From NCBI GenBank assembly GCA_028817905.1, contig JAPPOR010000544.1:1-27303 (forward strand): a stretch of 27,303 nucleotides of DNA. Reading direction: 5' to 3'. Of the stretch, positions 55 to 24,788 are shown one piece after another. Position 1 is the first letter of the stretch. Every line of letters begins with the position of its first letter. The notes below the pieces were generated by a model, which was given only the letters and a program-made list of their open reading frames with translations, was not told the origin of the DNA and made no database searches. The position numbers and the translations under genes are program-made. This DNA is from Myxococcales bacterium. GTDB taxonomy: Bacteria; Myxococcota_A; Polyangia; Polyangiales; JAFGIB01.

Positions 55-776
55 GCCTGGTTCGCCTTTTGCTCATCATGTTCCACCTTGCCGTCCCGCA
101 GGTGAACGACGCGGGCGGCGTGGGCGACCACGCGCGCGTCGTGGGTCGAAAAAACAAAGGTCATCCCGCGTTCGGTCCGCAGGCGACGCATCATCGCTAT
201 CAGTGCTTCGGCGTTGTCGCTGTCCAGGTTGGCGGTGGGCTCGTCGGCGAGCACCAGGCGCGGCTCTCCGGCGACCGACCGCGCCACCGCGACCCGCTGC
301 TGCTGTCCACCGCTGAGCTCGCCTGGCCGCCGGTCCGCGAGTTCGGCAAGCCCCAACTCCGCCAGGGCCCGCTGTGCTCGCTTGCGGCGCTCGCGGGCTC
401 CGATGCCGCGCAGCTCCAGCACGAACTCGACGTTTTCCTGGGCGGTCAGGACCGGTACCAGGTTGTACGCTTGAAAGACGAAACCGATCTCCGAAAGGCG
501 CAGCCTGGCTCGCTGCCGCTTCGTGAGCGATCCCAGGTCCCGCCCCAGGACAGTGACCGACCCGGATGTCTGACGGTCCAGCGCGCCGATGAGGTTGAGC
601 AAGGTGGTCTTCCCGCTGCCGCTGGGGCCGACCAGCGCCGTGAACTCGCCTGCCCCAATCGCCAGGTCGACGCCCCGAAGAGCGTGGACCGAGATGTCAC
701 CTTGACCGAAGGTCTTCGTGACACCCCGCATGTGCAACAGCGCGCGTGTGGCATCCTGATCGTGGCTATGGGTCAT
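51..776 (-). CDS. ABC transporter ATP-binding protein (LolD/MacB/FtsE-like)
   Basis: The ORF 51..890 translation contains Walker A GPSGSGKTT, the ABC signature LSGGQQQRVAVAR and Walker B LVLADEPT. The start was placed at the internal Met (MTHSHD...). That gives an ATG at 776..774 overlapping the upstream permease stop (TGA 775..773) as ATGA. Confidence 0.85.
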   Translation of the reverse strand: MTHSHDQDATRALLHMRGVTKTFGQGDISVHALRGVDLAIGAGEFTALVGPSGSGKTTLLNLIGALDRQTSGSVTVLGRDLGSLTKRQRARLRLSEIGFVFQAYNLVPVLTAQENVEFVLELRGIGARERRKRAQRALAELGLAELADRRPGELSGGQQQRVAVARSVAGEPRLVLADEPTANLDSDNAEALIAMMRRLRTERGMTFVFSTHDARVVAHAARVVHLRDGKVEHDEQKANQA

Positions 777-4025: not shown

Positions 4026-4657
4026 GGGCTCTCCCGGTTCACCGAGGGCGGAGCCGACAGGTCTCGGCACAGCTCGAGGGTCTTGAGCGATAGATGCTCG
4101 ACGTCCGCGGGGGAAAGGTCGTCGAGCCGGTCGGCGAACCACCGGTCGAGCCCCAGCAGAAGATGCGTCAGTCCGGTCGCGAGCATGTCGGTGGGCACGT
4201 CGTCTCGCACGGCACCCAGCGTTTGCCCGTGCTCGAGGGTCTCGATCACCGCAGCCTGTAGTTGCTGTCGGACGCGGTCGACCACCTGCTGGGCCCCGCT
4301 GTCGCCGTACAGGCAACGTCCCAGGGCGGAAAGGTCCGGCTCCGCAAACGTGAGCTCGGCGGCCCGCATGCCCCAGGCCCCCAGCGATTGCCAGAAGCCG
4401 TCCGCATCGTGGGCCGGCGGCGGCGGCCCGACGCGCGCGATGACGTCCGCGACCAGTTGGTCGATGACCGCACCGAACAGGTCCGCCTTGTCGGCGAAGT
4501 AGTAGTACATCGCGCCTTTGCTCACCTCGGTGGCCGCGATGATGCGGTTGTAACTCGCGCGCTCGAACCCGTGGGTGGCGAACTCCTTTCGCGCTGCCCG
4601 AAGAAGCTGATTGCGCTTGGTTTCCGGGAGCTTGAAGTAGCGTTCGAGGGGCGGCAT
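4022..4657 (-). CDS. TetR/AcrR family transcriptional regulator
   Basis: The N-terminal HTH region LLRAARKEFATHGFERASYNRIIAATEVSKGAMYYYFADK matches the TetR_N signature. Its 211-aa size is typical. It is the first gene of the ATGA-coupled exporter operon. Confidence 0.85.
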   Translation of the reverse strand: MPPLERYFKLPETKRNQLLRAARKEFATHGFERASYNRIIAATEVSKGAMYYYFADKADLFGAVIDQLVADVIARVGPPPPAHDADGFWQSLGAWGMRAAELTFAEPDLSALGRCLYGDSGAQQVVDRVRQQLQAAVIETLEHGQTLGAVRDDVPTDMLATGLTHLLLGLDRWFADRLDDLSPADVEHLSLKTLELCRDLSAPPSVNRESP

Positions 4658-4670
4658 CCGGGGCTCGTCC

Positions 4671-4727
4671 TAGACCAGTGAGGTTCTCTACCACTGGTCC
4701 AACCTTTGGTTCGACCAGTGGTCTAAA
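4671..4727. promoter_or_regulatory. Putative TetR operator array: GACCAGTG-N11-CACTGGTC plus the compact palindrome GACCA-G-TGGTC
   Basis: The inverted repeats lie 14-70 bp upstream of the TetR start codon (4657, minus strand). Half-site TAGACCAGTG at 4671-4680, its inverse CCACTGGTC at 4691-4699, and the palindrome GACCAGTGGTC at about 4713-4723. Confidence 0.45.
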
Positions 4728-4748
4728 AATGTCGCAAGTCCGCCGGGC

Positions 4749-4754
4749 TGTCAA
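4749..4754 (-). promoter_or_regulatory. Candidate -35 hexamer (TTGACA on the minus strand) for the TetR-exporter operon
   Basis: Perfect TTGACA on the minus strand. About 17-18 bp downstream is a weak -10 (CATTTT/ATTTTT) that overlaps the second operator palindrome. Confidence 0.25.
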
Positions 4755-7398: not shown

Positions 7399-7444
7399 TA
7401 AGGCCGTAAGCGTAGCAGAACCTGTGGGGCCCTGTCCCGCCCCA

Positions 7445-7488
7445 GGGGCACGCAAGGGGCACGCAAGGGGCACGCAAGCGGCACACAG
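7445..7488. repeat. Direct 11-bp repeat array GGGGCACGCAA x3 plus one degenerate copy (GCGGCACACAG)
   Basis: Visible in sequence at 7445-7488. It lies in the divergent intergenic region between the lipoprotein gene (start 7398, minus) and the FAH gene (start 7643, plus). Confidence 0.85.
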
Positions 7489-7642
7489 TGATGGCCCGCG
7501 CGCGCAAAACATTTAGCCAGCGGTCGCTGACAACGGTGACCGTGGGGTGCATAAGTGTTAGCCAAGAGGGCTGTCAAGCGAGCTCGTGCACACTTTGCCG
7601 ATGGGCAGGGGGCACGATGCGACCCAGCACAGGAGCGATGCG

Positions 7643-9783: not shown

Positions 9784-12700
9784 CTACGATGGCCGTGTGC
9801 CGCGGTCGGTGCGCGTCACGTGGCCCGCTTCGGCCATCGGCCGTGCGTCGCCGGAGCGGACCAGTGCCGAGGCCACGGCGGAACACTGGGAGGCGATCCC
9901 TTCCCCCGTTGGGTCTTCGCACGGGGAGGCGGTCGTGAACAGGCCCACGAACATCAGCTCGCTGCGGACCTTGCAGCTGAGCACCATGACCCGGTGCTCG
10001 GTGCCGCGTTCGTCGACATAGGTCGCAGCGCCCGGCACCGTCAGCATGCGGGTCGCTTGTTCTTCCCGGGGGGGCGACGCGTTCGGCAGCTCATCGCCAA
10101 TGTGCTCGGCGAAGAAGAACCGTGCGAACGCTCGGTCCGCGTTCGTCGGTGGTGCCTGCTCCTGGCTCGCAACCAGGGACAGTTCACCGTCGCGTCCAAC
10201 CAGGTAGAGATGACCTCCCGCCGCGTGCGTGATGTTGCACAGAAGGTGCAGGGCCTGTCGCGCTCGAGCTTCCGGGTTGTGGCAAGTAGCGAGCTTCTTG
10301 GCATAGGCGCAAGCATCCGCGGTCAAGGTAGCGGTGTCGGCGCCGAACACCGACGCCTCAAAGTTGCTCAGGCCCAAGGTGATCTCCAGTCCGTTTCCCC
10401 GGGCTTCGTCCACCAGGCGCACGAGTTCGGGCGCTGCAGTCGGATTCGACGACTCACCGCGCCCGTGCAACGCCAACAGGGCGTAGCGCCTGGCGGCTTC
10501 CTCGTCGCGGGCCCACACGGCGATCTGTGCTCTCACGTGGAAGCTCGCGACGAGGTGCAGTCCACGGATGTCGTGGGCCTCGGTCCACTCGATCAGACGT
10601 TCGACCCGCGCTGCAGCGTGTTCGATGTCCCCGGCGCGGGCCTCCGCTAGCGCAAGGGCTCGGGCGATCGCCAGCCTCGAGACATCGATGTGTTCCGCAT
10701 GGCAGCGCTCGAGCGCTTCGCGAGCCAACTCGATCGCTTCGGGAAGGCGTCCCTGGGCCCTTCGGACGCTGACCAATCCAGCCACCGCCATCGCCCACGT
10801 GTCTTCCGACGAAAGGCGTCCCGGTTTGCCGGGTCGGCACAGCTCCAGTGCCTCTTGGAGCGGCGCCTCGGCCTGGTCCTCTTTGCCCTTGAAGAGCTGG
10901 AAGTAGCCGGTTGCCACATTGGCCGCGGGCGTCCAACGAGGGCTGCGCTTGGCCAGGGCCGACAGGCCCTCCATCGCGCGGTGAACCGATCCGAGGTCAC
11001 TCGCAAGGATCCCGGCTTCCAGGTCCGCGTGCCACCGTGGGACCAGCACGTGTCGGACATTCGAACGCAGTGCCAGCAGTTCGGCCTGCTTGCGAAACTC
11101 GTTGGCCCCAGGACCATCTCCCTGCATCAGGCGCGTGACCGCACGCGATTGCATCGCGTTGACGGCGTAGAGGCGATCGTCTGCGACCCGCTGGGCCCAC
11201 TCGTGGGCCGACTCACGCGCGAGCCGGGCCTCCAGCATCCCGATGAGATGCGCCAGCCCGTTCCGAATCGACTCCAGATAGGTCACCTGATCCCCTTCGA
11301 TCGTTTCCAGCGCTTCATGGGTGGTGACCAGGCGCCGGTGGGCGGCCAAGGTCCGGCCCAGGCACAGCGCCTCCTGGATCCCCAGGCAGTCCTGCCACAT
11401 GGCGTGGGCCGCGGGCGACAGGGGGGCGAGCGGCTCGAGCAGGGCAGGCAGGCTCGATAGCAGGTCCGTGTCCGCCACGCGGGAGCCGGTTGTGACCGCC
11501 GGAATCACGTAGAAGCAGAGCATCTTGATCGCTTCGTCAACCGGGTACACCCGCTCGCGCTCAGGGGTCTCTTCAAAGCGTGTGATCGCCCGTGTGAGCG
11601 CGCGCTGCAAGCGCTCGTGGGGATCGAGGGAGGCGGGCAGTGCGCGGTAGTCGAGCAGACCCGCGTCCCGCTCGAGCTGCGCGAGCCAGGCCGGGGCGTT
11701 GCGGTAGAAGACGCCTTCGTCTTGGGCGAGGATCGCGGCCGAGCACAACCCGAAGCGCAGGTCGTGCTCGGCGCGCTTGGAGCGACCGCTCGCGAGCAGC
11801 TGGACAAGGGCGCCCTCGCCCGTGGCAGCCACCCGATCGAAGTCCAGCTCGAGCGCCATATCGACCTGGTCGTCAAAGACCAAGGCGCACGTCGACAGTA
11901 CGTCGAGCGCCTCCTCCGAGCGTCCCGCCTCGTTGAGGTGGTGCGCGACCAGAAAACCCAGATCCTTGCCCTTCTGCTGTCTGCGAAACTCGGCCAGCGA
12001 CGTATGGGTCGCGCGTGCGTCAGCGGCACTCATGAGTGCTCGCAACGTGCCGGCTAGGGTGCGGTGGCGCAGGCTGTAAAAAAGGCCGTCGCCCTGCACC
12101 AGGTCGGCCTGCAGGAGAGCGAGCAGCGCACCTTCCAGTTGAGAGGCTGAAGCCTTGGGCGCCAGGTTGCGAAAGTCGTCGCGGCTAAGAACATCCTGGC
12201 CCAACAGTGCCAGCGCCTCGGCCAGCGTGCGGGCGAGCGGCGGGAGCCCCTCGATGCGTCGGACGAAGGCGTCCATTGCGGTAGTGGGCAGATCGTTTGC
12301 GTCCAGCTTGGCGGGCAGCGTCCACCGAGCGTCCTGGTAGTGGATGACGCCGTTGTCGACCAGATGCTGGGCCAGAGCCATGGTTTGTTGGGGACTTCCG
12401 AGCGCGACGCTGTGGATGCGGTCCGCCACAAACGCGACATTGGCGACGTCCCCGAACACGGATGCGACCAACGCGGCGCTTTCGGCAGGTGAGAGCGGGG
12501 CAAGGGTCGCCGCCTGGCCGTGCCTCGCCAGCATGTGGTAGGCGCCCGGCGCGCATTGGGTGGCATTTGGGTCAGAGGTGGTCAACAGCAGCAAGCGCTG
12601 ACGGGGGGCATCCATCGCGAGCTCCGCGAGCAGGGAAAGCGAAGGTTCGTCGATCCGTTCCAGGTCGTCGATGGTGATGGCCACCGCGTGCGTGTCGCAG

Positions 12701-14034
12701 ATGCGTGCGAGCCAGGCGCAGAGGTCCATCTGCAGACGCCCCCGTCCTTCGGGTGGATCGGCCAGTGATCGGATGGAACTGCCTGCGGTCGCGCCCTGGT
12801 TGTGCACGATCAGCTGCTCGCAGATACCTGCTTGTCGCGCCGTCGAACGCGCGACCGCTGGGATCTGCTGCAATAGCTGCTCGAACAGATCCTGCACGAC
12901 GCCGAACTGCCGCTCGGGGCCGACCGTGGCGCCGGAGCGAAGCACCACGGTGCCGAAGGTCTTGGCTTGCAGCGCACAGGCGTCCAGTATGCGCGAGCGG
13001 CCCAGTCCGGTTTCGCCCTGGAACAGGATGGTGTTGCCGACCCCGTGGAGCGCACGTCGCAAGTGATGGCGTACGCTGCGGAGCTCGGAAGCGCGGCCAA
13101 CGAGCACGGGCGTGTCGAGATAGGCGCGCGAGACTTCGATGGACTCGCGTTCGTGGGTGTTTGCGATGGCTTCGAGTCGGGGCATGACTTCGAAGGCGGA
13201 ACGCGGGCGCTGGGTCGGATCGATCCGCAGCAGCGAAGCGCACAGGGCGTCCAAGGCGGGGGGGATGCCGGGAGCATGGCGCGAAGGCGGGACCAGCTCG
13301 TGGTTCCAGGCGTGCCGCAGCTGTGAGAAGTCCTTGGCCGCGAAGGGCAGCTTGCGCGTCAGGGCGTAGTAGAGGGTGCCTCCAAAGGAAAACAGGTCTG
13401 AGCGGGCGTCGAGAGCGGCTCGGTGCAGGACTTCCGGCGCCACGAAGGCCGGCGTTCCGACGACCTCGGTGGCGGGACCCATCGGCATCAGCGCGCCGAA
13501 GTCGATCAACTTGGCGTGGCCGTCGCGGGTGCAGCGGACGTTTCGCGGGCTTACATCGCGATGCAGCAGGCGGCGCGAGTGGAGCAGTGCGAGCGACGAA
13601 CAGACCTCCAGCATCAGCGCGCAGACCCGCAAGGGGCTCAACGGCGAAAGCCCCTGGAGGTCGCCGCCATCGAGCAACTCCATGGTGTAGAAGGGGCCCG
13701 CCTGGTCGACCCCGTAGTCATAGACATCGATGATGCGCGGGTGGCTTAGCTGCGCGAGCGTATGGTACTCGCGCTCGAACATGGACACGCTCTGCCGTGG
13801 GGTCTTGTGGCGGGCCTGCGGTTGCAGGTTCTTGAGGGCGACCTCGGTCTGGCTGCCGACGTCCAGGGCGCGGTAGACCACGGCCATGCCGCCCCGCCCG
13901 AGCTCTTCCCCCAGGCGGTAGCGACCCCCAAGGAGTCGTGCCCGTGGCACGGAAGCGGCCGTCGGAACGGGTGGAGGCCTGCTGAAGCGCCTGGCTCCGA
14001 CAACCGGAGGGTCACTTTGCGTTTTCGCTGCCAT
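9784..14034 (-). CDS. Ser/Thr protein kinase fused to AAA/STAND-type NTPase, TPR-like helical repeats and a C-terminal GAF-like domain (1416 aa)
   Basis: Hanks kinase motifs: glycine loop GRGGMAVVY, VALK, HRDVSPRN, DFG and APE. Downstream P-loop-like LFQGETGLGRS and Walker-B-like ITIDDLERID. Then a long alpha-helical repeat region and a C-terminal GAF-like segment. The architecture is typical of myxobacterial PknK/MalT-like kinases. Confidence 0.85.
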   Translation of the reverse strand: MAAKTQSDPPVVGARRFSRPPPVPTAASVPRARLLGGRYRLGEELGRGGMAVVYRALDVGSQTEVALKNLQPQARHKTPRQSVSMFEREYHTLAQLSHPRIIDVYDYGVDQAGPFYTMELLDGGDLQGLSPLSPLRVCALMLEVCSSLALLHSRRLLHRDVSPRNVRCTRDGHAKLIDFGALMPMGPATEVVGTPAFVAPEVLHRAALDARSDLFSFGGTLYYALTRKLPFAAKDFSQLRHAWNHELVPPSRHAPGIPPALDALCASLLRIDPTQRPRSAFEVMPRLEAIANTHERESIEVSRAYLDTPVLVGRASELRSVRHHLRRALHGVGNTILFQGETGLGRSRILDACALQAKTFGTVVLRSGATVGPERQFGVVQDLFEQLLQQIPAVARSTARQAGICEQLIVHNQGATAGSSIRSLADPPEGRGRLQMDLCAWLARICDTHAVAITIDDLERIDEPSLSLLAELAMDAPRQRLLLLTTSDPNATQCAPGAYHMLARHGQAATLAPLSPAESAALVASVFGDVANVAFVADRIHSVALGSPQQTMALAQHLVDNGVIHYQDARWTLPAKLDANDLPTTAMDAFVRRIEGLPPLARTLAEALALLGQDVLSRDDFRNLAPKASASQLEGALLALLQADLVQGDGLFYSLRHRTLAGTLRALMSAADARATHTSLAEFRRQQKGKDLGFLVAHHLNEAGRSEEALDVLSTCALVFDDQVDMALELDFDRVAATGEGALVQLLASGRSKRAEHDLRFGLCSAAILAQDEGVFYRNAPAWLAQLERDAGLLDYRALPASLDPHERLQRALTRAITRFEETPERERVYPVDEAIKMLCFYVIPAVTTGSRVADTDLLSSLPALLEPLAPLSPAAHAMWQDCLGIQEALCLGRTLAAHRRLVTTHEALETIEGDQVTYLESIRNGLAHLIGMLEARLARESAHEWAQRVADDRLYAVNAMQSRAVTRLMQGDGPGANEFRKQAELLALRSNVRHVLVPRWHADLEAGILASDLGSVHRAMEGLSALAKRSPRWTPAANVATGYFQLFKGKEDQAEAPLQEALELCRPGKPGRLSSEDTWAMAVAGLVSVRRAQGRLPEAIELAREALERCHAEHIDVSRLAIARALALAEARAGDIEHAAARVERLIEWTEAHDIRGLHLVASFHVRAQIAVWARDEEAARRYALLALHGRGESSNPTAAPELVRLVDEARGNGLEITLGLSNFEASVFGADTATLTADACAYAKKLATCHNPEARARQALHLLCNITHAAGGHLYLVGRDGELSLVASQEQAPPTNADRAFARFFFAEHIGDELPNASPPREEQATRMLTVPGAATYVDERGTEHRVMVLSCKVRSELMFVGLFTTASPCEDPTGEGIASQCSAVASALVRSGDARPMAEAGHVTRTDRGTRPS

Positions 14035-14236: not shown

Positions 14237-15970
14237 ATGTGGGAAGCGATCGCGCTCGCAGCTGACCTGGGTGTCCTGACCGTCGGGTACTGGCTTTCGG
14301 ATTGGGCCATACGGGGAGGGGGCTTGTTGGGGGCGCTCGGACGCATTCGGTTGCTGCACGATGGCCCGACCGCCCTGGTCTTCATGGCGACCTATGCGGC
14401 GCTCTCGCCCCTGTGGTCATGGGAGCACGTTCCGGAAGGCGAGACGCTCCGATGGGTCGCCGCGGTGCTGGGGCTGGCGCTCGCCTGGCGCGCGGCGACC
14501 CGTGACATCGACGTGGTGCGCGGCAATCGGCAGACGCTCGTGCGCTTGCTGGTGCTCGCCAGTGCGGTCCTCACGTGGCTGTCCCCCGGGATGCTGGTCA
14601 GTACGTGCCTGCTGCTAACGACGCCGTTTGGCATGTGGCAGCACCACGCAACCCTGCCCATGCGCGTGCTTCAGGCGCTGCTGGCGTTTGTCGTGTTGCA
14701 ACCGTTGGTCAGCGGGCTCGGCGCCCTGCGAGATGCGTCGGCGCTGTTCCTGTTTCTGGTAACGATTCAGGTCTCGCACTACGTGGTGACCGCCCTGGCC
14801 AAGGGACACCTGGGTCCGCGCTGGTACTCGTGGCCGCTGGACAACCGCCTGCACCACATCGCCGCGAGCGCCTACAGTTGGGGTTGGGCGCGCTTCGTGC
14901 CCTGGGCGCGCTGGCGGCGCGTGGTCGCCGTGGTACGCGCGCTGGAGGTGCCGCTGCAAGTGGTCGTCTTCTTGCTCGAAGCGCTTTCGCCACTTGCGCT
15001 GCTGCACGCCCATGCTTCGGTCGGCTTCAGCATCGCCTTCGCCGGCTTTCACCTGGGTGTGTTCCTGCTTTCGGGTCTGCTTTTCTGGGAGTGGATCGTG
15101 ACTGACCTCGTGCTTGCGATGGCCGTCTGGCGGCTTTCCGCGGGGGCGGCCGCGGTCGCCTTTGGTCCCGGGGCGCTGTTGCTGGGGGTCGTGCTCATGG
15201 TGGCATTCCCCCTGCGTCACAGGCTTTGGCGCCCGATGTCACTCGGCTGGTGGGACACGCCCTTCACCCAGCGCATGCATTGGCGGGTGCGCGGTCGCAG
15301 TGGCGCCATGTACGGCCTATACGCGGACTTCATGGACCCCCACGAGCGCATCTACGGCAAGGTCCATGGCTACTTCCTCGCACCCGTGCCGGTCCTGACC
15401 TACCATCTTGGGGAGGCCTTTCGTCACGAGCTGCGGGACGGCTTGCGCGCGGCCGGAGGCGATCCCGGGCGGCTGGACGCGCTGCGCGAACAGTTCGGGA
15501 TCGAGCCCCGCGACGCCCGCCTGCTGGAGAACCACGAGACCTATCTTCAGCGGTTTTGTTGGGAGCTCAATCGGGGGGCTCGCAAGCATGTGCTGCCGTC
15601 GCGGTTACGCTTCCTCAAGGCCCCGGGGGGGCAGTGCTACTACTGGGGTGACTTGCCGGCGTACCGGCGCCAGGAGCCCATCGAAGAACTCGAAGTGGTC
15701 TATCGCGAGGAATACTTCGACGGCGAGGCGCTGCAGCGGCTGCGCGATGAGGTGGTGTTGCGTGTCCCGATCGAGCGAAGCTCCACGCCGCCACGGGCCG
15801 CTCGCGAGCCCACCCCCAAGGAACTCGACGATCACCTCCTTTCGTTCGCCGCTGGACGCTTGATTCGCCTACCGGGGCTGGGCGACGGGCTGGTGCACGC
15901 GGATGACGGTGTGCCGGGGTCGCGGGCGGGCGCGGCCGCCGGACCCGTTGCGCCACCCGATGAGGGTTAG
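14237..15970 (+). CDS. Polytopic integral membrane protein (at least 8 predicted TM helices in the N-terminal ~330 aa) with a C-terminal soluble domain; family not recognised
   Basis: The 577-aa ORF has many hydrophobic 20-aa stretches rich in W/L/A. The C-terminal ~230 aa is hydrophilic. It is divergent from the kinase gene across a 202-bp intergenic region. No motif is confidently assignable from sequence alone. Confidence 0.55.
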   Translation: MWEAIALAADLGVLTVGYWLSDWAIRGGGLLGALGRIRLLHDGPTALVFMATYAALSPLWSWEHVPEGETLRWVAAVLGLALAWRAATRDIDVVRGNRQTLVRLLVLASAVLTWLSPGMLVSTCLLLTTPFGMWQHHATLPMRVLQALLAFVVLQPLVSGLGALRDASALFLFLVTIQVSHYVVTALAKGHLGPRWYSWPLDNRLHHIAASAYSWGWARFVPWARWRRVVAVVRALEVPLQVVVFLLEALSPLALLHAHASVGFSIAFAGFHLGVFLLSGLLFWEWIVTDLVLAMAVWRLSAGAAAVAFGPGALLLGVVLMVAFPLRHRLWRPMSLGWWDTPFTQRMHWRVRGRSGAMYGLYADFMDPHERIYGKVHGYFLAPVPVLTYHLGEAFRHELRDGLRAAGGDPGRLDALREQFGIEPRDARLLENHETYLQRFCWELNRGARKHVLPSRLRFLKAPGGQCYYWGDLPAYRRQEPIEELEVVYREEYFDGEALQRLRDEVVLRVPIERSSTPPRAAREPTPKELDDHLLSFAAGRLIRLPGLGDGLVHADDGVPGSRAGAAAGPVAPPDEG

Positions 15971-16283
15971 CCCGGGTCATTCACGACTTACGACGCCGCC
16001 TCGCTTGTTCTTCGACTCCACAGTGCTTTCGACCCCCTGCAATACGGGCAGTATGTGGGTCGGTGGCCGACAAGCCGTGGGAAGCCGAGTCCCGACGCGA
16101 TCCGACGCGGTGTTGATGGATAGCCCGGGCCAGACCGGTGCGAGGTGAATTCTGGCCAGCCGGGCGTGGGTCACGCTGGTAGTCCCCGCGGGTGGTCACG
16201 GAAAAGCCGGGACAATCGCGATCCCCTGTTGTAGATCCAGTGCGCTTGGCGGAAACGTCGGCAGGGAAGGGGGACGTGCCTTT

Positions 16284-16976
16284 TTGCAGGAGCTGCTGGC
16301 GCAAAGCTTCGCCTATCCAACGGTCGTGTGGAGCGTGCTGCTCGGCCTCGCGTCTTTCTATTGGTTGCTTGTTCTGGTGGGCGCGGTGGGTATGGAGGTA
16401 CTGGAGGGCAGCGTGGAAGGGGCGGCCGACGCTGCCGGTGCCGCTGGCGGGGGCCTAGCTGATATCGGTGAGGCAGCCGAGGCGGCGTCCAATGCGGCGA
16501 GCGCCCTGTCCGTCTTTGCCCTGCTGCGGCGACGGCGCGCTCCCCTGACGGTCAAGTTCTCCATGGTCACCCTGCTCGGGTGGTTGAGCTGCTGGTACGC
16601 GAGTGCGTGGCTCGGCGGGTTCGTCCCGGATGCCGTGCCGGTCGTCGCCTGGGGGACCGGCCTGCTCTTGCTAACCTTGCTCCTGGCGATTCCGGTGGCG
16701 GCCACGCTGCTGATCCCCCTCGAGCCACTCTTCGATACCCATGAAGCGCGGCGCCGCGGTCATCTCGTGGGCGAGGTCGTCGAAATCGAGACCAGTCGGG
16801 TGGACCGCAAGTTCGGCCAGGCGCGGCTCGAGGACGGTCAGGCGGGGATGATTCTCCAGGTGCGCTGCGACCCGAACCGGCAGCTCAGCCGAGGCAAGCG
16901 GGCCCTGATCCTGACCTACGACGAGGAGCAGGAGTTCTACGAAGTCGAACCGTACGATGACCTGTTGCAGAAATGA
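16284..16976 (+). CDS. NfeD/YqiJ-like membrane protein (N-terminal TM region plus C-terminal NfeD-type OB-fold)
   Basis: N-terminal and central TM helices, with a C-terminal GEVVEIETSRVDRKFGQARLEDGQAGMILQVRCD beta-rich segment typical of NfeD short-form OB domains. These classically pair with SPFH/flotillin genes. The ORF-track start is a TTG at 16284, preceded by GGAAGGGGGA (16266-16275). The true start could be a downstream GTG. The stop overlaps the flotillin start (ATGA at 16973-16976). Confidence 0.7.
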   Translation: MQELLAQSFAYPTVVWSVLLGLASFYWLLVLVGAVGMEVLEGSVEGAADAAGAAGGGLADIGEAAEAASNAASALSVFALLRRRRAPLTVKFSMVTLLGWLSCWYASAWLGGFVPDAVPVVAWGTGLLLLTLLLAIPVAATLLIPLEPLFDTHEARRRGHLVGEVVEIETSRVDRKFGQARLEDGQAGMILQVRCDPNRQLSRGKRALILTYDEEQEFYEVEPYDDLLQK

Positions 16977-19054
16977 GAGGTGACCAAGTGGACTTGATCC
17001 AACCGTGGGTGATCGGCTTCGCCCTGCTCGTACTCGTCGTGCTGGGCGCGCTGGTGATGTTTGCGCGCTTCTATCGCAAGGTGGACCAGGGCAAGGCGCT
17101 GATCATCAACACCATGGCCTCGGAGCCGATGGTGACGTTCACGGGCGGCATCGTCGTCCCCATCTTGCACCGCGCAGAGATCATGGAGATCTCGGTCAAG
17201 ACCATCGATATCGACCGGCGTGGCAAGGAGGGGCTGATCTGCAAGGACAATATCCGCGCCGATATCAAGGTTGCCTTCTTCGTACGCGTCAACAAGACCC
17301 GCGGCGACGTGCTCAAGGTGGCCCAGTCGATCGGATGCGACCGGGCGTCGGATCAGAAGACCCTCGAGACACTGTTCGTCGCCAAGTTCTCCGAGGCGCT
17401 CAAGACGGTCGGCAAGCGGATGGAGTTCGAAGAGCTCTATACGATGCGGGACGTGTTCCGAGATCAGATCATCGAGGTGATCGGCAAGGACCTCAACGGG
17501 TACGTCCTGGACGATGCCGCGATCGACTATCTGGAACAGACCCAGGTCGAGCTATTGGACCCGCAGAACATCTTGGATGCTCAGGGCATTCGCAAGATCA
17601 CCCAGATGACTGCGGCCCAGAGCGTCGCGACCAATGACCTGCGGCAGGAGGAACGCAAGTCGATCACGCGCCAGAACGTGGACGCCCAGGAGAAGATCCT
17701 GGAGATGGAGCGCCAGCAGGAAGACGCGGTCGCCAAGCAGAAGCGCGAGGTCGAGAGCATTCGCGCGCGCGAAGAGGCGGAAACACTGCGTGTGCAGGCC
17801 GAGGAGCGGCAGCGGTCGGAGCTGGCCCGCATCAAGGCCGACGAGGCGATCGCCGTCGAGGCGCAGAACCAGCAGCGCCAAGTCGAGATCGCCCAAAAGG
17901 CGCGCGAGCGGGCCGTCCAAGTCGAGGCGGAGCGGGTCGAGAAGGACCGTCAGCTCGAGGCGATCGCGCGCGAGCGCGAGACCGAACTGTCGCGCATCGA
18001 CAAGGAAAAATCGCTGGAGGTGGAGCGCAAGGTGATTGCAGACACCATCTCGCAGCGAATCGCGGTCGAAAAACAGGTGGCCGAGGAGGAGGAGCGCATC
18101 AAGGACCTGCGGGTGTTGGCGGAGGCCAAGCGCAACAAGGACGCGACGGTGATCGCCGCCGAGGCCCAGGCGCAGGAAGTGGTGGTCAGGCAGGTCAAGC
18201 AGGCGGAGGCGGAGGAGTTGTCGGCCAAGCACAAGGCCTCCGAGCAGGTCACGATCGCGGAGGCCGAGCTCGAGTCGGCCGACAGGCTGGCGCGCGCCAA
18301 GATCCGGCTGGCCGAGGGCACCCAGGCTGAACAGGCCGCCCAGGGGCTGGCCCAGGTGCGCGTTAAGGAAGCGGACGCGCTGGCGATCGAAAAAGAGGGC
18401 AAGGCGAACGCCGAGGCGAACCGGAATATGCTGGTCGCCGAAGCAGCGGGGGCCGAAGCCAAGGGGATGGCGGAGGTCAAGGTCAAGGAGGCCGAGGCCG
18501 CGGCCATCGAGCGAGTCGGTGCCGCCGAGGCCCAAGCGATCAAGGTCAAGATGGAGGCCGAGGCCGCTGGCCTGGCCAACAAGGCCGACGCGATGCAGAA
18601 GCTCGATGGCCTGGGTCGCGAGCACGAAGAGTTCAGGATACGCCTCGAAAAGGACAAGGAGGTCGAGCTTTCTTCGATCGCGGCGCGCAAGGAGGTGGCG
18701 GGTCGCAATGCGGACATTCTCTCGCAGGCAATGGCGAACGCGCGTATCAACCTCGTCGGAGGCGACGGTGCCTTCCTGGACCAGTTCTTCCGGGCCGTTT
18801 CCGTTGGCCAGTCCCTCGATGGTGTGGCCCACGGCAGCGATGCCGGCCGCGCGATGCTTACCGAGTATGTCGACGGGGACGCGAGCTTTCGCGAGGATTT
18901 GAAGGAGGTCCTGACGAAGGGGCGGTTCCAGCCGGAGGATCTGAAGAACCTCAGTCTGTCCGCGCTTTTGGCGCAGATGGCTGCCGGCGCGGACGGGACC
19001 AGGAAGAAGGCGCTGGAGGACCTCCTGCAGCGTGCCAAGGACTTGGAGTCCTGA
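16973..19054 (+). CDS. Flotillin / SPFH (band-7) family protein, YqiK/FloT-like (693 aa)
   Basis: N-terminal membrane anchor WVIGFALLVLVVLGALVMFARFYRK. SPFH domain. Long Glu/Ala/Arg/Gln-rich coiled-coil region with flotillin-type EA repeats (AEAEA...). ATGA-coupled to the upstream NfeD-like gene. Confidence 0.85.
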   Translation: MRGDQVDLIQPWVIGFALLVLVVLGALVMFARFYRKVDQGKALIINTMASEPMVTFTGGIVVPILHRAEIMEISVKTIDIDRRGKEGLICKDNIRADIKVAFFVRVNKTRGDVLKVAQSIGCDRASDQKTLETLFVAKFSEALKTVGKRMEFEELYTMRDVFRDQIIEVIGKDLNGYVLDDAAIDYLEQTQVELLDPQNILDAQGIRKITQMTAAQSVATNDLRQEERKSITRQNVDAQEKILEMERQQEDAVAKQKREVESIRAREEAETLRVQAEERQRSELARIKADEAIAVEAQNQQRQVEIAQKARERAVQVEAERVEKDRQLEAIARERETELSRIDKEKSLEVERKVIADTISQRIAVEKQVAEEEERIKDLRVLAEAKRNKDATVIAAEAQAQEVVVRQVKQAEAEELSAKHKASEQVTIAEAELESADRLARAKIRLAEGTQAEQAAQGLAQVRVKEADALAIEKEGKANAEANRNMLVAEAAGAEAKGMAEVKVKEAEAAAIERVGAAEAQAIKVKMEAEAAGLANKADAMQKLDGLGREHEEFRIRLEKDKEVELSSIAARKEVAGRNADILSQAMANARINLVGGDGAFLDQFFRAVSVGQSLDGVAHGSDAGRAMLTEYVDGDASFREDLKEVLTKGRFQPEDLKNLSLSALLAQMAAGADGTRKKALEDLLQRAKDLES

Positions 19055-19066
19055 GCCAGGCTGAGA

Positions 19067-22000
19067 ATGGCTGAAGATCGCGATAGCGCCCAGGGGGGAA
19101 CGGCGGCCGCGCCGGGTCAGGTGGCCGAGTCGGAGCTGGCCGGGGGCAGCTACGAGTTGATCCGGGAGCGCCTCGTGGTGCAGGCCCGGGGTCTCGGTGA
19201 GCTTTCGGCTGCGTTGAACACTCGTCGCCAGGAGGTCTTTGGAGGCACGCAACTCGCTGTGGTCGGCAATGCGCGCGTGCGCACGGAGAACAACTGCCGG
19301 CCGCGGGACATCGTCCAGGTCAGTGGCCACATGCTGTTCGGGTACAACGTGTTCATCGGGCTGCGGACCGAGACGCGCATTGAAGACGTGCTGGGGCTCT
19401 ATGACCTGTCGGATGCCCAAGACGCGTTCGGGCTTGAGTTGCTTGCGGCCGACCATGCGGACACTGCGTTCCTGCACGCCCCCGAGTTCGTACGCGATTT
19501 CGAGGAGCTCTGCCGCTACTACAAGGAGACTCGCCTCGTTCGCCTGACACGCAATGAAGCGCACCTGCTGGCCGTGTTTCAGATCGGGCAGAGCGACAGT
19601 GATCTGCGGATCTTCCGCTTTCAATTGTCACCCGAGGGTGTCCGCTACATCGACAATCGCGGCGACCGCGAGTACCGCTTTCCCCCATCGCATGCGTTCG
19701 AGTGGACCCAAACCACGCGCGACCAGCAGGTCGCCGGTCGTGTGCCGCACGCGAATATCGAAGACGAGCTCTTCGTCGAAACGAGCGGGGGCGACCTCAC
19801 GCTCAAGGTCGAGAACAACACGGAGACGGGGGAGGGCATCTACAACGAGCCCGTCGAGGAAGACAATCAGAGCCTGGACGACGCCGAGATTCACTACGCA
19901 CGCGTCGGTGCGTTGATCCTGCTCAAGGTGTTGCCCTATCGCGAGGAGCGCTATCGCTACCTGGTGTTCGCGACGCGGTCCCATCGCGTCCAGCGGATCG
20001 ACGCGATCGGAGAGGCCTGCCTCGAGCTGCCCGAGGATCACGGGATCATCTTTCCTGGTGGGTACTTTCTTCAGGATGGGCAGTACAAGGTCTTCGATGG
20101 AGACTTTTCTGGCTTTCAGTACGAGCGTCGCGTGCTCGCGCCCAATGGTGAGGACGTCTTGTACGTCTTTCACAGGCACCTCGATGGTCACTATGTGCTG
20201 TTCCCCTACAACCTGATCCGCAAGGAGGTGCAGACGCCGATTCACTGTCACGGATACAGCCTGTTTGAGGATGGCCGGATGGTGATCTTCCGGTCCACGT
20301 CCGATGAGCCTACCCGCGTGCACGCGATGCAGCTGTGGCAAACGCCGTTCGTGTCAGAGGAGTTTGCTGCACAGGCGCCGCAGGGTGAGGGATTGCTGGA
20401 GAATATCGGCAACGCCGAACTGGTGCGCGGCATTTCCGATTGCTACAGCATCCGCCGAGCGGTCGAGGAGACCGAGCCATCACGGCAGGTCTACGAGGAC
20501 TTGATAGCCGCCATCGGGCGCACGCTCGATGCCTACTACTGGCTCGAGGAAGCCGAGGTCGGCAATCTGCGCGCCGCGCTCGAGGAACTGCGCTCGACCA
20601 CAGAGCTCATCGTGGACGAGTTCGTCAAGGTCACCGCCCTCAAAGAGCAGGCGCAGACCGCGCTCTCCGATGCCGAGCGGGCACAGGTCGATCTGCTCAA
20701 TCGCAGCCGCCCGGATGTGTTCAGGTCGGTGCAGGAGTTCATGGGTGGGTTGACGGGGCTTCGGACCCAGCGGGGCCATCTCATCACGCTCAAGGAGGTA
20801 CGCTACATTGACGCGGGCCGCCTGGATGAACTGGAGCAGCAAGTCGTCGAGGCCTTTGATCGCTTGAGTCGTGCCACCGCGGCTTTCTTGTTGCAGGGCG
20901 AGGCGCTCGCGCCCCTGCGCAAGGAGATCGAGGAACTGCTTCAGGGGATCGAGGGCACCAACAAGACCCATGAGCTTGCAGCCCTTGGAGAGCGGCTCGA
21001 GGAAACCTCCGAGGGCCTGACGGTCCTCAGCGAGGTGGTCGGTAGCCTGGAGGTCGAAGATCCCGTCGAGCGGACCGCCATCCTGGAGCACATTTCCGAG
21101 GTGTTCGCGCAGCTCAACAGGGTGCGCGCGACCTTCCAGAATCGCAAGAAGGAGCTGCTGAGCGTAGAGGGCAAGGCGGAGTTTGCAGCTCAATTTACGC
21201 TGTTTTCGCAGAGCGTGACCAGCGCCATGGGCCTGGCGGACACGCCCGAGCGTTGCGATGAGCAGCTGTCGCGTTTGATGGTGCAACTGGAGGAACTGGA
21301 GGCGCGCTTCAGCGAGTTCGATGAATTCCTGGCGGACCTGACCAGCAAGCGCGAGGAGGTCTATCAGGCGCTGGAGCAGAAGAAGCAGCAGTTGCTCGAC
21401 GAACGCCAGCGACGCGCCGAGAACCTTCTTTCGGCCGCCGATCGCATCCTTGTGGGGATCGAGCGGCGCGCCAAGGGCTTTGCGGAAGCCGACGAGCTCA
21501 ACGCCTACTTCGCGTCCGATCCGATGGTGTTGAAGCTGCAGGAACTTGCCGAGCGGCTGGAGGACCTCGGTGACGCCCCGCGGGCGGAAGGGCTGCGCGC
21601 GCGTCTGAAAACGGAGCGCCAGAACGCCGCGCGCAGCCTGCGCGACAAGCTTGAGTTGTTCGAGGAGGGCCAGGCGGTCGTCAAGTTCGGCCAGCATCGC
21701 TTCGCGGTCAACCAGGAGGCGCTCGAGCTCACCTTGCTCGCTTCCGGGGATGACATGCAGTTGGCGCTGTCCGGCACCAACTTCCGGGAGCCGGTTTCCG
21801 ATAGCGACTTCGAAGCCACCCGGGACTACTGGGACCAGCATCTCGTGTCGGAGACGCCCGACGTCTATCGCGGGGAATACCTGGCGGCGTCGATCCTGTT
21901 CGACGCGCAGGCCCATCGCGATGGGTTGTCGCTGCAGGGCCTGCGGGATGCTGAGCGCACCGAGGAGGGGCTTTTTGAGCTGGTGCGCAAGCAGGCCGCG

Positions 22001-24598
22001 GCGCGCTTTGATGAGGGCTACGAGCGGGGGCTCCACGACGCCGACGCGACGCGGATTCTCGAAGGCTTGCTGCACCTGCACGACGGCGCGGGCCTGTTGC
22101 GGTTCTCGCCCGACGCGCGGGCCGTGGCCGTGCTGTTCTGGGCGCTGGCCCCGGAGGGCGTTGCCGACGTCCCCAAGGAAGCATGGCGAAGGCGGGCGAG
22201 GAGCCTTCGCCAGTTGCGCGAGGTGTTTGAGCATTCTTCTGCGGTGGGCGAGCTTGCGGGGGAGCTTGGTGCGGCCATCGGGCGCTTTTGTCAGGAGCAA
22301 GGTCTCGACGTGTCGGCCGCGCAGGTGCGCGAGGCCGGGGCCTATCTTGTGGAGGAGCTCGGCGCTGAGGAAGTGCGTTTCGCCAGCAGTGCGGGGGCCG
22401 AGCGTTTGCGCACGACCCTGTTGGACCAGCTCCACTCGCAGGGGACTCGAGCGCGCTTCGAGCAGGACCTGGAGGCGCTGCAGGAGCGTGTTGCTGGCGG
22501 GATCGGGCTGGCACGGGCCTGGCTCGAGGCCCTGAGCCGCAGGACGAACGCCTCGCTCGATGCGAACGATGCGGGCGCCTCGCGGCACGTCTTGCTGGAG
22601 GCGGCTGTACAGCTGTTTACGTTACACCGAGTCGCGTACGTGCAGAGCAGCGCCCGCACGGTGGCGACCGTGGAGGGGCTCTTGGGCCAGCATCCGCGCA
22701 TCGTCGGGCGCAAGCTCGAGTTGCGTCTGGATGAGTTCCTCGCGCGGCTTTCGGAGTTCATTCATACGCGTGTGCCGGGGTATCGGCGCTACCGAGAACT
22801 TCGCCACGCGCTGCTTGAGCGAGAGCGTGCGCGTCTACGTCTCGACGAGTTCATGCCGCGCGTGCTGTCGTCTTTCGTGCGCAACCGGCTGATCAACGAA
22901 GTGTACCTTCCACTCATCGGCGACAATCTCGCCAAGCAGTTGGGCGCTGTGGGTGACAGCAAGCGTACGGACTTGATGGGCCTGCTGTTGCTCATCTCGC
23001 CTCCCGGGTACGGAAAGACCACCCTGATGGAGTACATCGCCAGTCGCCTTGGACTGGTCTTCATGAAGATCAACGGGCCCTCCCTGGGCCACGGGGTCAC
23101 TTCGCTCGATCCGGGGCAAGCGGATAGTGCGACGGCTCGCCAGGAAGTGGAGAAGGTGAACCTGGCCTTTGAGATGGGCAATAACGTGATGCTCTATCTC
23201 GATGACATCCAGCATACGCACCCGGAGTTCCTGCAGAAGTTCATCTCGTTGTGCGATGGTCAGAGGCGCATCGAGGGCGTATGGAAAGGCAACACGCGTA
23301 CCTATGACCTGCGTGGCCGTCGCTTTTGCGTGGTGATGGCGGGCAATCCCTATACCGAGAGCGGTGAGAAGTTCCAGATCCCGGACATGCTCGCCAACCG
23401 CGCCGACACTTACAACCTGGGTGACATTCTGGGTGGCTCCCAGGAGGCGTTCGCCCTGAGCTACGTGGAGAACTCGATCACCAGTAACCCGGTGCTGTCC
23501 CAGCTTGCCAATCGCGACCAGGCGGATGTCTACCGTTTCGTCAGGCTGGCCCAGGGCGAGGAGGTGCGCACCAGCGAGCTGAGTCATGGCTACTCGAGCG
23601 TCGAGGTCGATGAGATCGTGGCGGTGCTCAGGCGGATGTTCCAGGTGCGAGACATTCTCCTATCGATCAACCGGACCTATATCGCGTCGGCGTCTATGGA
23701 CGACCGCTTCCGGACCGAGCCACCGTTCAAGCTGCAGGGAAGCTACCGCAACATGAACAAGCTGGCCGAGAAGGTCGTGGCTGCGATGAATGACGCGGAG
23801 CTGCAGCAGCTCATTTCTGACCACTATCAAGGGGAGGCCCAGACCCTGACCACGGGTGCCGAGCAGAATCTGTTGAAGCTGGCCGAGCTGCGCGGGGTCC
23901 TGACCGAGGAGCAAGCCGCGCGCTGGGCCGCGCTGAAGAAGGGCTTCCAGCGTGTGCAGAGCGTTGGCGGGGGCGACGATGATCCGGTGACGCGTGTAGT
24001 CGGCCAGCTCAGCGGTGTTGGGGTTCAGCTGGAGGGGATTCGCGACGCGCTATCGGCCGCCTCGGAGCGAGCCCTGGCTGCACGCGCGGAGCAGGAGCGG
24101 GCGCTGGTGCCCGAGGAACCGGTAGAAACCGCGGCCGAAGACGCTGCCTTCGCGCAGCACCGGGAGATGCTGACCGCACGCCTCGGGCAAATTGTGGAGG
24201 CGGTCGAGGGGCTGGCTCGACGCAATGTCGACGTTCAGGTCCAGGCCGACGTGGGTCGTGATCTCTTGGGTCTGATGGAGCAGCATGGCCAGCTGGTGCG
24301 GGAGGGCATCATGCCCCTGGTGCAGCATACGGTTCGCCAGGCGGCCCAGGCCGCCCGGGCAACCCAGACAGCTCAGCAGGTATCCCAGCCGACGAGCGCC
24401 AGCCCTGGTGCGGCCGTAGGCCCTCCGGGTGCAGCCCCGGTCGAGCACGACCTGCACTGGAACATCGGCCACATTCTGGGCCTGACCCGGGCGATCGCCG
24501 AGCGCATCGACGACATGCAACGGGGCCAACGAATGATCCTGCGCGACCTTTCCGCCCGGCGAAAACGGGCGGCCGCTGCGCGCAAGGCGAAGGAATAG
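19067..24598 (+). CDS. Giant (1843 aa) protein: beta-rich N-terminal region, ~800-aa helical/coiled-coil middle, C-terminal AAA+ ATPase (MoxR/dynein AAA_5-like) and a basic tail
   Basis: Walker A SPPGYGKTTLMEY (about 23001-23030). Walker B VMLYLDDIQH (about 23188-23213). Sensor-1-like VVMAGNPYTE (about 23330-23355). The N-terminal ~440 aa are rich in short beta-strand-like Y/F/V segments. The middle is heptad-like E/L/R/Q-rich. The start ATG at 19067 is 12 nt after the flotillin stop. Confidence 0.8.
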   Translation: MAEDRDSAQGGTAAAPGQVAESELAGGSYELIRERLVVQARGLGELSAALNTRRQEVFGGTQLAVVGNARVRTENNCRPRDIVQVSGHMLFGYNVFIGLRTETRIEDVLGLYDLSDAQDAFGLELLAADHADTAFLHAPEFVRDFEELCRYYKETRLVRLTRNEAHLLAVFQIGQSDSDLRIFRFQLSPEGVRYIDNRGDREYRFPPSHAFEWTQTTRDQQVAGRVPHANIEDELFVETSGGDLTLKVENNTETGEGIYNEPVEEDNQSLDDAEIHYARVGALILLKVLPYREERYRYLVFATRSHRVQRIDAIGEACLELPEDHGIIFPGGYFLQDGQYKVFDGDFSGFQYERRVLAPNGEDVLYVFHRHLDGHYVLFPYNLIRKEVQTPIHCHGYSLFEDGRMVIFRSTSDEPTRVHAMQLWQTPFVSEEFAAQAPQGEGLLENIGNAELVRGISDCYSIRRAVEETEPSRQVYEDLIAAIGRTLDAYYWLEEAEVGNLRAALEELRSTTELIVDEFVKVTALKEQAQTALSDAERAQVDLLNRSRPDVFRSVQEFMGGLTGLRTQRGHLITLKEVRYIDAGRLDELEQQVVEAFDRLSRATAAFLLQGEALAPLRKEIEELLQGIEGTNKTHELAALGERLEETSEGLTVLSEVVGSLEVEDPVERTAILEHISEVFAQLNRVRATFQNRKKELLSVEGKAEFAAQFTLFSQSVTSAMGLADTPERCDEQLSRLMVQLEELEARFSEFDEFLADLTSKREEVYQALEQKKQQLLDERQRRAENLLSAADRILVGIERRAKGFAEADELNAYFASDPMVLKLQELAERLEDLGDAPRAEGLRARLKTERQNAARSLRDKLELFEEGQAVVKFGQHRFAVNQEALELTLLASGDDMQLALSGTNFREPVSDSDFEATRDYWDQHLVSETPDVYRGEYLAASILFDAQAHRDGLSLQGLRDAERTEEGLFELVRKQAAARFDEGYERGLHDADATRILEGLLHLHDGAGLLRFSPDARAVAVLFWALAPEGVADVPKEAWRRRARSLRQLREVFEHSSAVGELAGELGAAIGRFCQEQGLDVSAAQVREAGAYLVEELGAEEVRFASSAGAERLRTTLLDQLHSQGTRARFEQDLEALQERVAGGIGLARAWLEALSRRTNASLDANDAGASRHVLLEAAVQLFTLHRVAYVQSSARTVATVEGLLGQHPRIVGRKLELRLDEFLARLSEFIHTRVPGYRRYRELRHALLERERARLRLDEFMPRVLSSFVRNRLINEVYLPLIGDNLAKQLGAVGDSKRTDLMGLLLLISPPGYGKTTLMEYIASRLGLVFMKINGPSLGHGVTSLDPGQADSATARQEVEKVNLAFEMGNNVMLYLDDIQHTHPEFLQKFISLCDGQRRIEGVWKGNTRTYDLRGRRFCVVMAGNPYTESGEKFQIPDMLANRADTYNLGDILGGSQEAFALSYVENSITSNPVLSQLANRDQADVYRFVRLAQGEEVRTSELSHGYSSVEVDEIVAVLRRMFQVRDILLSINRTYIASASMDDRFRTEPPFKLQGSYRNMNKLAEKVVAAMNDAELQQLISDHYQGEAQTLTTGAEQNLLKLAELRGVLTEEQAARWAALKKGFQRVQSVGGGDDDPVTRVVGQLSGVGVQLEGIRDALSAASERALAARAEQERALVPEEPVETAAEDAAFAQHREMLTARLGQIVEAVEGLARRNVDVQVQADVGRDLLGLMEQHGQLVREGIMPLVQHTVRQAAQAARATQTAQQVSQPTSASPGAAVGPPGAAPVEHDLHWNIGHILGLTRAIAERIDDMQRGQRMILRDLSARRKRAAAARKAKE

Positions 24599-24690
24599 CG
24601 GAGCCTCCCGAGGCTCGGCCCGAGCCTCGCCGGAGGCTGGCCCCGAGTCGTCCGCGAGACACAACGGCCACGGTGCCACGCAGCGCCTTG
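24599..24690 (+). terminator. Two tandem short GC hairpins, then a 9-bp stem, right after the giant gene's stop; possible intrinsic terminator without a U-tract
   Basis: gagcct-cccg-aggctc and agcct-cgccgg-aggct at 24601-24640, and gtgccacgc...gcgtggcac around 24673-24700. There is no T-run, which is usual for a high-GC genome. Confidence 0.3.
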
Positions 24691-24788
24691 CCAGGGCGTG
24701 GCACGGGGGTTGCTTGAGGCAGTCCATTGGCGACCTGGTGAGTCGATACTGCATTCGGCTTGCGCGTACAGGAAAGCAGGGAGGCGAG

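Follow-up and report, generated by a model that had tools for sequence, protein, structure and literature searches.

Introduction

Does a giant AAA+ ATPase whose gene directly follows a flotillin gene belong to the flotillin module, and what might such a protein do at the membrane? This question is raised by three genes in contig JAPPOR010000544.1 of a Myxococcales bacterium (assembly GCA_028817905.1), of which a stretch of 27,303 nucleotides (nt), called the window in the following, was analyzed. The three open reading frames (ORFs) are located on the + strand and encode a small membrane protein of 230 amino acids (aa; gene 1, 16284-16976), a flotillin-family protein of 693 aa (gene 2, 16973-19054), and an ATPase of 1843 aa (gene 3, 19067-24598). 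By direct reading of the sequence, genes 1 and 2 share an ATGA stop/start overlap (16973-16976) and 12 nt (19055-19066) separate the flotillin gene from the ATPase gene; ORFs, coupling, spacer, and ATPase length all agree with a preliminary description of this DNA.

In this study, we analyzed the domains, predicted structures, distribution, and gene neighborhoods of the three proteins. Taken as a whole, the cassette is best explained as an abbreviated form, i.e. one with no adjacent pspA gene, of a widespread membrane-stress or membrane-remodeling operon, a reading to which we assign a probability of roughly 0.55. The operon has already been published as a prediction, in a preprint of 2020 and in 2024 (Ravi et al., mSystems 2024; PMC11237479), and the idea as such is not new.

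Conservation of the three-gene arrangement

Searches with the ATPase yielded more than 5335 homologues at E ≤ 1e-10. Its N-terminal domain matched 741 cluster representatives (50% identity clusters), the full-length members being about 1590-2036 aa long and carrying the domain at the N-terminus. For the analysis of gene neighborhoods, one genome per species was scanned, which gave 568 confirmed relatives; the best 80 loci, with at least 48% identity, were used, and the 78 of them that contained DNA upstream of the ATPase gene formed the informative set. A flotillin gene adjoined the ATPase gene, upstream and on the same strand, in 77 of these 78 loci. Directly upstream of the flotillin gene, a YqiJ-like gene was present in 68 loci, with three further cases within about 1.6 kb. 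The junctions within the triad were often overlapping or very short, and the pairwise identities of flotillins and ATPases were closely correlated (r = 0.94; 2775 pairs).

The triad is kept in at least seven bacterial phyla: the 80-locus sample spans Myxococcota, Actinomycetota, Gammaproteobacteria, Acidobacteriota, and Planctomycetota, and spot checks added Deinococcota (Deinococcus) and Bacteroidota (Hymenobacter). Because it recurs in 77/78 loci across phyla, the arrangement goes beyond chance. The preliminary description had named a synteny survey in advance as a check capable of refuting it; the ATPase homologues do adjoin flotillin genes, and its proposal that the three genes form one unit is borne out at the level of conservation. 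We infer co-transcription of the three genes from their spacing and synteny. In none of the 80 related loci was the 577-aa ORF from directly upstream, or the trypsin-like (S1) protease gene from downstream, located beside the triad. Both were rejected as operon members and the three genes alone are regarded as the unit, because these flanking genes are not conserved with the triad; for the protease, this is the independence expected earlier.

Some loci deviated from the arrangement in the window. The only locus with non-adjacent flotillin and ATPase genes (L015, 3572-9935) has about 6.4 kb with several large ORFs between them, which may be an insertion or extra operon genes. In three actinomycetotal loci (L020, L048, L085), no YqiJ-like gene upstream of the flotillin gene was found by tblastn despite available DNA. 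A Streptomyces plasmid has a 144-aa hypothetical gene at the YqiJ position, possibly encoding a shorter or more divergent anchor. Also, the distance from flotillin stop to ATPase start is 360-670 bp in several Pseudomonas, Lysobacter, and Methylomonas loci (L024, L046, L055, L056, L059, L075), versus 12 nt in the window, and a small gene missed by annotation or a regulatory element could lie there.

Domain structure of the giant ATPase

Gene 3 was assigned by Pfam and homologue searches to the DUF3686 family. The DUF3686 domain (PF12458) covers residues 45-491 (19199-20539; E 2.4e-200, 666.2 bits versus a cutoff of 25, model positions 4-448 of 448). In the confident AlphaFold2 (AF2) model of residues 1-560 (pLDDT 85.6, pTM 0.80), a long helix precedes a beta-rich body, which is predicted to be beta-propeller-like, and a helical bundle follows. 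Thereby, the region of about 440 aa previously described as beta-rich keeps this character and receives a family name. It is followed by a helical middle region of about 700 residues that contains DUF7902 (PF25472, residues 612-696, 20900-21154; E 1.7e-26) and several invariant, non-repetitive motifs, e.g. EGYERGxHDAD at residues 983-993. This region had been described as coiled-coil-like; its helical nature was confirmed, but in view of these elements it is not only coiled coil. It also gave weak PADLOC matches to LmuB, an SMC-like coiled-coil protein.

A single AAA+ module with helical lid follows at residues ~1296-1650 (22952-24016), as judged from motifs, Pfam matches, and AF2 model. It contains a Walker A motif (PPGYGKTT, 23003-23023), a Walker B motif (MLYLDDIQ; residues 1375-1380, 23189-23206), and the sensor-1 residue Asn1427 (23345-23347) within VVMAGNPY. 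All three motifs, read in the same way before (GYGKTT, LYLDDIQ, VVMAGNPY), are invariant in alignments of 15 and 33 sequences. AAA+ ATPases usually have DE in Walker B; here, the motif reads hhhhDD (LYLDDIQH), and this is invariant among the aligned homologues. The loop NGPSLGHxVxSLDP (residues 1336-1349) is invariant as well. Pfam matches to both AAA_5 (25.8 bits, cutoff 22) and AAA (28.8 bits, cutoff 21.2) lie at residues 1307-1432. In the AF2 model of residues 1191-1694 (pLDDT 80.5), the AAA+ module is complete; a hairpin precedes sensor 1, and a helical lid is present. The MoxR/AAA_5 clade is characterized by a helix-2 insert hairpin and a pre-sensor-1 hairpin. According to the AF2 model alone, gene 3 has the latter at residues 1402-1413, and the connection of strand 2 to helix 2 is a conserved loop without hairpin. 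Structurally, the module is closest to NorQ and CbbQ, chaperones of the MoxR type, so the previously noted likeness to MoxR/AAA_5 proteins is upheld. Searches of PDB sequences with the family profile and with the flotillin gave matches at the Walker-A/P-loop level only, or none. Among 75 orthologues, conservation was highest in the AAA+ module and lowest in the last ~190 residues (column conservation 0.08-0.20), which correspond to a poorly conserved, low-complexity C-terminal tail (residues ~1651-1843, 24017-24595). In sum, the DUF3686 protein of gene 3 is built from a predicted head resembling a beta-propeller, a long helical stalk, and a single AAA+ module that is MoxR/AAA_5-like and has intact motifs.

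Members of this family carry the NCBI product name 'DNA repair ATPase', and the Pfam text for PF12458 reads 'ATPase involved in DNA repair'. Taken literally, these names would make gene 3 a DNA repair enzyme that is a chance neighbor of the flotillin pair, and marginal matches to RuvB_N and RuvB (E ~1e-3) point in the same direction. The NCBIfam RuvB scores, however, were 17.8-18.5 bits versus cut-offs of 282-299, and the similarity was confined to some 45 residues at the P-loop. A Pfam scan of the ATPase detected neither a DNA-binding nor a nuclease domain, and the protein has no protease domain or transmembrane segment; membrane-protein genes are the neighbors in 77/78 loci; and literature searches gave no support for the name. 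We regard a DNA repair function as extremely improbable and close to refuted, and the label is probably a propagated misnomer.

The flotillin and the small membrane protein

The identity of gene 2 (16973-19054) as an SPFH/Band-7 protein, proposed earlier, was confirmed by two results. Band_7 matched residues 36-178 (E 3.9e-11), only when the N-terminal 209 aa were scanned alone, and the protein shares 30% identity with E. coli YqiK over 439 aa including the coiled coil (E 3e-40). The reference sequences of YqiK and of YqiJ (see below) were those of strain MG1655. In full length, the flotillin had no Pfam match even at E ≤ 10, NCBIfam likewise gave none, and the C-terminal 'Flot' model did not match; the Pfam miss is probably caused by a Glu/Ala-rich coiled coil that trips the composition filters of HMMER, an effect that could hide such flotillin genes from automated annotation. 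An N-terminal membrane anchor and the SPFH domain are followed by a coiled coil that is long and rich in Glu and Ala, and the protein ends in a variable tail. Across 76 orthologues, SPFH domain and coiled coil are well kept and the last ~70 residues are not. By these comparisons, gene 2 is classed as a YqiK-like flotillin.

Gene 1 (16284-16976) is more divergent from named families. Its protein matched neither Pfam nor NCBIfam models, and in Pfam not even at E ≤ 10, so a strict assignment to Pfam NfeD, as the term NfeD/YqiJ-like in the preliminary description would suggest, is not established for the window protein. Scanning 24 homologues with Pfam yielded a few weak matches to YqiJ_N, YqiJ_OB, and NfeD, among them NfeD (PF01957) in one protein with E 0.021 and YqiJ_OB in one with E 0.013. 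By contrast with the strict NfeD assignment, the YqiJ part of the earlier term stood: a profile built from these 24 sequences matched E. coli YqiJ with 91.8% probability (E 7.3e-7, 130 columns) in hhalign, and because of this match the name YqiJ-like is justified. From translation and family alignment (24 orthologues), the protein starts with a hydrophobic helix, continues with an acidic linker that is rich in Gly/Ala and varies in length and with two further hydrophobic segments, and ends in a conserved beta-rich (OB-like) tail. Transmembrane segments were assigned by eye. On the strength of the profile match, gene 1 is assigned to the YqiJ/YuaF-type small membrane proteins.

Correspondence to a published operon and recurrent partner genes

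Ravi et al. (PMC11237479) described an operon in which a CesT/Tir-PspA dyad is combined with a flotillin, a propeller-ATPase, and a YqiJ/YuaF protein with three transmembrane segments, sometimes with addition of a PLD gene. The Dokdonia entry in their Table S3 has the order YqiJ-YuaF, Band-7+CC+flotillin, Betapropeller+CC+AAA-ATPase, i.e. the same three proteins, domain architectures, and gene order as in the window. The triad studied here thus almost certainly belongs to this operon family, and the earlier statement that NfeD-SPFH operons do not canonically include a giant AAA+ protein, with its implied novelty, was overstated. In the full-length form the CesT/Tir-PspA dyad is present. The window represents the abbreviated form because the dyad was not found upstream, and neither a CesT/Tir nor a PLD gene was found within the 27-kb window. 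According to the same authors, abbreviated operons with flotillin, YqiJ/YuaF, and sometimes the ATPase are the more widespread ones and may work with PspA encoded elsewhere. Their paper is purely computational, inferring ATP-dependent sub-membrane dynamics in silico; for the ATPase, it offers neither a Pfam name nor a structure or statistics on synteny.

The associations with PspA, DUF2170, and PLD reported there were reproduced in our survey. Genes for DUF2170 (YjfI-like, CesT/Tir superfamily) and PspA_IM30 are located directly upstream of the triad and on the same strand in 17-18 gammaproteobacterial loci. In Hymenobacter, the order is 'chaperone Tir - PspA/IM30 - DUF1449 - flotillin - DNA repair ATPase'. 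At the 3' side of the triad, PLD-like genes occur in eight loci and TelA in seven Xanthomonadales loci, and rhomboid genes follow the ATPase gene in eight loci, often overlapping its stop codon. The recurrent partners have membrane-stress or membrane-associated functions. The analogies to membrane remodeling and envelope stress in the preliminary description were strengthened by these PspA/IM30, CesT/Tir-like, TelA, rhomboid, and PLD neighbors.

Among individual gammaproteobacterial loci, L024 (15232-19205), L038 (14886-16451), and L057 (15737-17236) show the ATPase gene followed by genes for a rhomboid protease and PLD/HKD proteins. In the first of these, from Pseudomonas, the rhomboid start overlaps the ATPase stop, and a gene for an SF1 helicase with a REase-like C-terminus is also present. 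All three triad genes were also found on the Pseudomonas megaplasmid pQBR103 (L081; NC_009444.1, 86.9-97.6 kb), directly downstream of genes for DUF2491, DUF350, DUF1190, and a protein of the glutathionylspermidine-synthase family. This yjfKLMC-like cluster ties the triad to the polyamine-associated PspA neighborhood of PMC11237479.

Giant coiled-coil NTPases are common in defense systems, and the third analogy proposed earlier was to conflict systems. Under this explanation, a membrane-anchored sensor and an effector would trigger abortive infection upon phage attack. Besides the coiled-coil architecture, it can draw on weak PADLOC matches (the coiled coil of LmuB, E 3.9e-5, and the P-loops of mad8 and IetA), on the Pseudomonas locus with a PLD-like gene and an SF1 helicase-REase gene after the triad, and on the triad copy of pQBR103. 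However, none of the triad proteins had a full-length match in PADLOC (PADLOC-DB v2), flotillin and YqiJ-like protein giving none at all, and the classification as a defense system was rejected because PADLOC gave only marginal coiled-coil and P-loop matches. No homologue was detected in 50,697 phage records, and matches occurred in only 13 of 72,556 plasmid records, most of these being chromids, megaplasmids, or mislabeled chromosomes; an origin from mobile elements was rejected on these counts. Defense genes diversify fast, and the triad shows high identity (~50%) and a fixed architecture across phyla. Moreover, its recurrent partners are membrane-stress genes, its neighbors in the window are of the housekeeping type (MacB/LolA-like, L,D-transpeptidase, FAA hydrolase, LysR), and literature searches gave no link between SPFH operons of this type and defense. 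An anti-phage function is therefore improbable, and this part of the earlier analogies did not stand.

Comparison with other systems

The pair of genes 1 and 2 corresponds to the two-gene modules yqiJK of E. coli and yuaF-floT of B. subtilis. YqiJ is a homologue of the gene 1 protein and YqiK of the gene 2 protein; the gene order is shared, and the E. coli genes are adjacent too. The window flotillin exceeds YqiK by 140 residues. Unlike the window, E. coli K-12 has no ATPase gene downstream of yqiK, where the sibD/ibsD loci are located instead.

For the ATPase, MoxR chaperones (NorQ/NorD, CbbQ/CbbO, RavA/ViaA) and the AAA_5 modules of midasin and dynein are the nearest comparison, with an AAA_5 match above the cutoff and, in the model, the beta-hairpin preceding sensor 1 as common features. 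Sequence identity is only 14-16%, Walker B of gene 3 has DD, and its model lacks the helix-2 beta-hairpin. MoxR proteins are about 250-500 aa long and work with a VWA/MIDAS partner. Unlike these, gene 3 has ~1290 residues of propeller and stalk before the AAA+ module, and no VWA/MIDAS domain was detected in the triad, in ten scanned flanking ORFs of the window, or in the annotated recurrent neighbor clusters. A second comparison is HflK/C-FtsH, in which an SPFH-family scaffold and an inner-membrane AAA+ machine likewise form a genetic and functional pair. Here, gene 3 differs in having neither a transmembrane anchor nor an M41 protease domain, and the SPFH partner is of the flotillin type, not of the HflK/C type.

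Both comparisons raise the possibility of a reversal of roles, with HflK/C-FtsH or MoxR systems as the models. The flotillin/YqiJ cage would then corral and regulate the ATPase, which would act on membrane or periplasm-bound clients needing unfolding, extraction, cofactor insertion, or quality control in stress. This would fit the structural proximity of the AAA+ module to NorQ and CbbQ and its AAA_5 match above threshold, as well as the rhomboid protease genes overlapping the ATPase stop in eight loci, which hint at processing of membrane-protein clients. SPFH cages are established to enclose an AAA+ machine in HflK/C-FtsH, and FloA-NfeD of S. aureus stabilizes unfolded proteins (PMC13086221); the same paper, on P. 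aeruginosa SPFH proteins, does not cover the present operon. Against reversed roles, the ATPase has no protease domain, VWA/MIDAS partner, or transmembrane segment, conserved candidates for client genes are lacking beside the triad outside Gammaproteobacteria, and the invariant partners are flotillin and YqiJ only. We consider reversed roles unlikely, while giving them distinctly more weight than an anti-phage function.

Finally, Vps4-ESCRT-III of archaea and eukaryotes and PspF-PspA resemble the present operon in that a gene for an AAA+ ATPase is coupled in many relatives to one for an ESCRT-III-superfamily polymer, PspA. The proposed ATP-driven turnover of a membrane-bound polymer would be a further likeness. 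Features of a sigma-54 activator, as in PspF, are absent from gene 3, and gene 3 has neither an MIT domain nor a classical-clade AAA module, the features that mark Vps4 and the classical AAA clade. According to a 2025 review, bacteria appear to lack a Vps4-like ATPase (PMC7619361).

Proposed function

A role of the triad in membrane stress is likely, and its assignment to the abbreviated form of a membrane-stress or membrane-remodeling operon is the overall explanation that we prefer. By analogy with other NfeD-SPFH pairs, the YqiJ-like protein would nucleate or anchor an oligomer of the flotillin, as a cage or dome, at the inner membrane on its cytoplasmic face. This scaffold would be the docking site of the giant ATPase, which would bind via propeller and stalk, oligomerize through its AAA+ module, and spend ATP on remodeling, loading, or disassembly of the flotillin lattice. 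The ATPase might act on the ESCRT-III-like PspA polymer as well, wherever PspA is encoded, be it alongside or elsewhere; in B. subtilis, the SPFH protein YdjI is reported to link PspA to the membrane (PMC8581546). During envelope stress, the ATPase could thus function like Vps4, which acts on ESCRT-III, or like an unfoldase that recycles a membrane coat. We put forward the specific mechanism, a remodeler of flotillin/PspA assemblies, because of the genomic context, and we do so tentatively, rating it somewhat below even odds. More speculative, and on balance doubtful, is the further idea that the DUF3686 ATPase is the missing bacterial counterpart of Vps4, i.e. a dedicated recycler or reshaper of flotillin domes and PspA/ESCRT-III-like polymers at the damaged membrane, which would have evolved independently from a MoxR-like AAA+ module and would use propeller and stalk as a polymer-recognition device.

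Several observations weigh against the preferred reading. Neither PspA_IM30 nor DUF2170 was found among the main ORFs of the 27-kb window. The C-terminal tail of the flotillin, a natural docking site, is poorly conserved. The DD in Walker B may indicate slow, switch-like, or regulated hydrolysis. Distant family members are under-sampled, since the 80 loci are the best-scoring of the 568 relatives, and no experimental work on any operon member was found in literature searches.

Signals and genes around the triad

The G+C content of the window is 65-68% over most of its length. Upstream of gene 1, an intergenic region of 313 bp (15971-16283, + strand) is the probable location of the promoter; no sigma-70 consensus promoter was found there on the + strand by a promoter scan. 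The start codon of gene 1 is TTG, with a Shine-Dalgarno-like run (GGGAAGGGGGA) about 8 nt before it. Directly 3' of the gene 3 stop, a G+C-rich hairpin with a strong fold was identified at 24602-24638 (+ strand) and a second hairpin near 24673-24704. The former may mark the end of the operon. The hairpins reported earlier after gene 3 are present in this respect, but they have no U-tract, a terminator scan called no canonical terminator there, and the folding energy of the region is not significantly better than that of shuffled sequences (z = -1.75). No RNA family was found by an Rfam scan of the window. An ATG preceded by a GGAGG box at 24790 is probably the start of the downstream trypsin-like gene.

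The neighbors of the triad in the window encode two MacB/FtsX-type permeases, a LolA-like protein, a YkuD-M74 peptidoglycan enzyme, a FAA hydrolase, a LysR regulator, and a Ser/Thr kinase-AAA_16-TPR protein. The two MacB/FtsX-type permease genes and the gene for a 503-aa protein with C-terminal LolA-like domain form a cluster on the - strand (773-4754) that likely encodes a lipoprotein or efflux-type transporter. An 876-aa protein (4882-7512, - strand) contains a YkuD L,D-transpeptidase domain and a Peptidase_M74 (MepA-like murein endopeptidase) domain, a seemingly unusual joining of peptidoglycan cross-linking and cleaving. A 1416-aa protein (9784-14034, - strand), divergent relative to the cassette side, combines a Ser/Thr protein kinase, an AAA_16 (STAND-like) NTPase, and TPR repeats. 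In the 577-aa ORF directly upstream of the triad (14237-15970, + strand), the N-terminal half is hydrophobic and multi-pass and the C-terminal half is soluble; the ORF matched no Pfam family.

Implications

In thousands of genomes, members of the family carry what is probably a wrong name, 'DNA repair ATPase', and a correction would be useful. Flotillin/SPFH cages and PspA/ESCRT-III polymers are central to membrane organization and repair in bacteria, and the operon is a strong candidate for the role of dismantling or regulating flotillin/PspA assemblies in these organisms.

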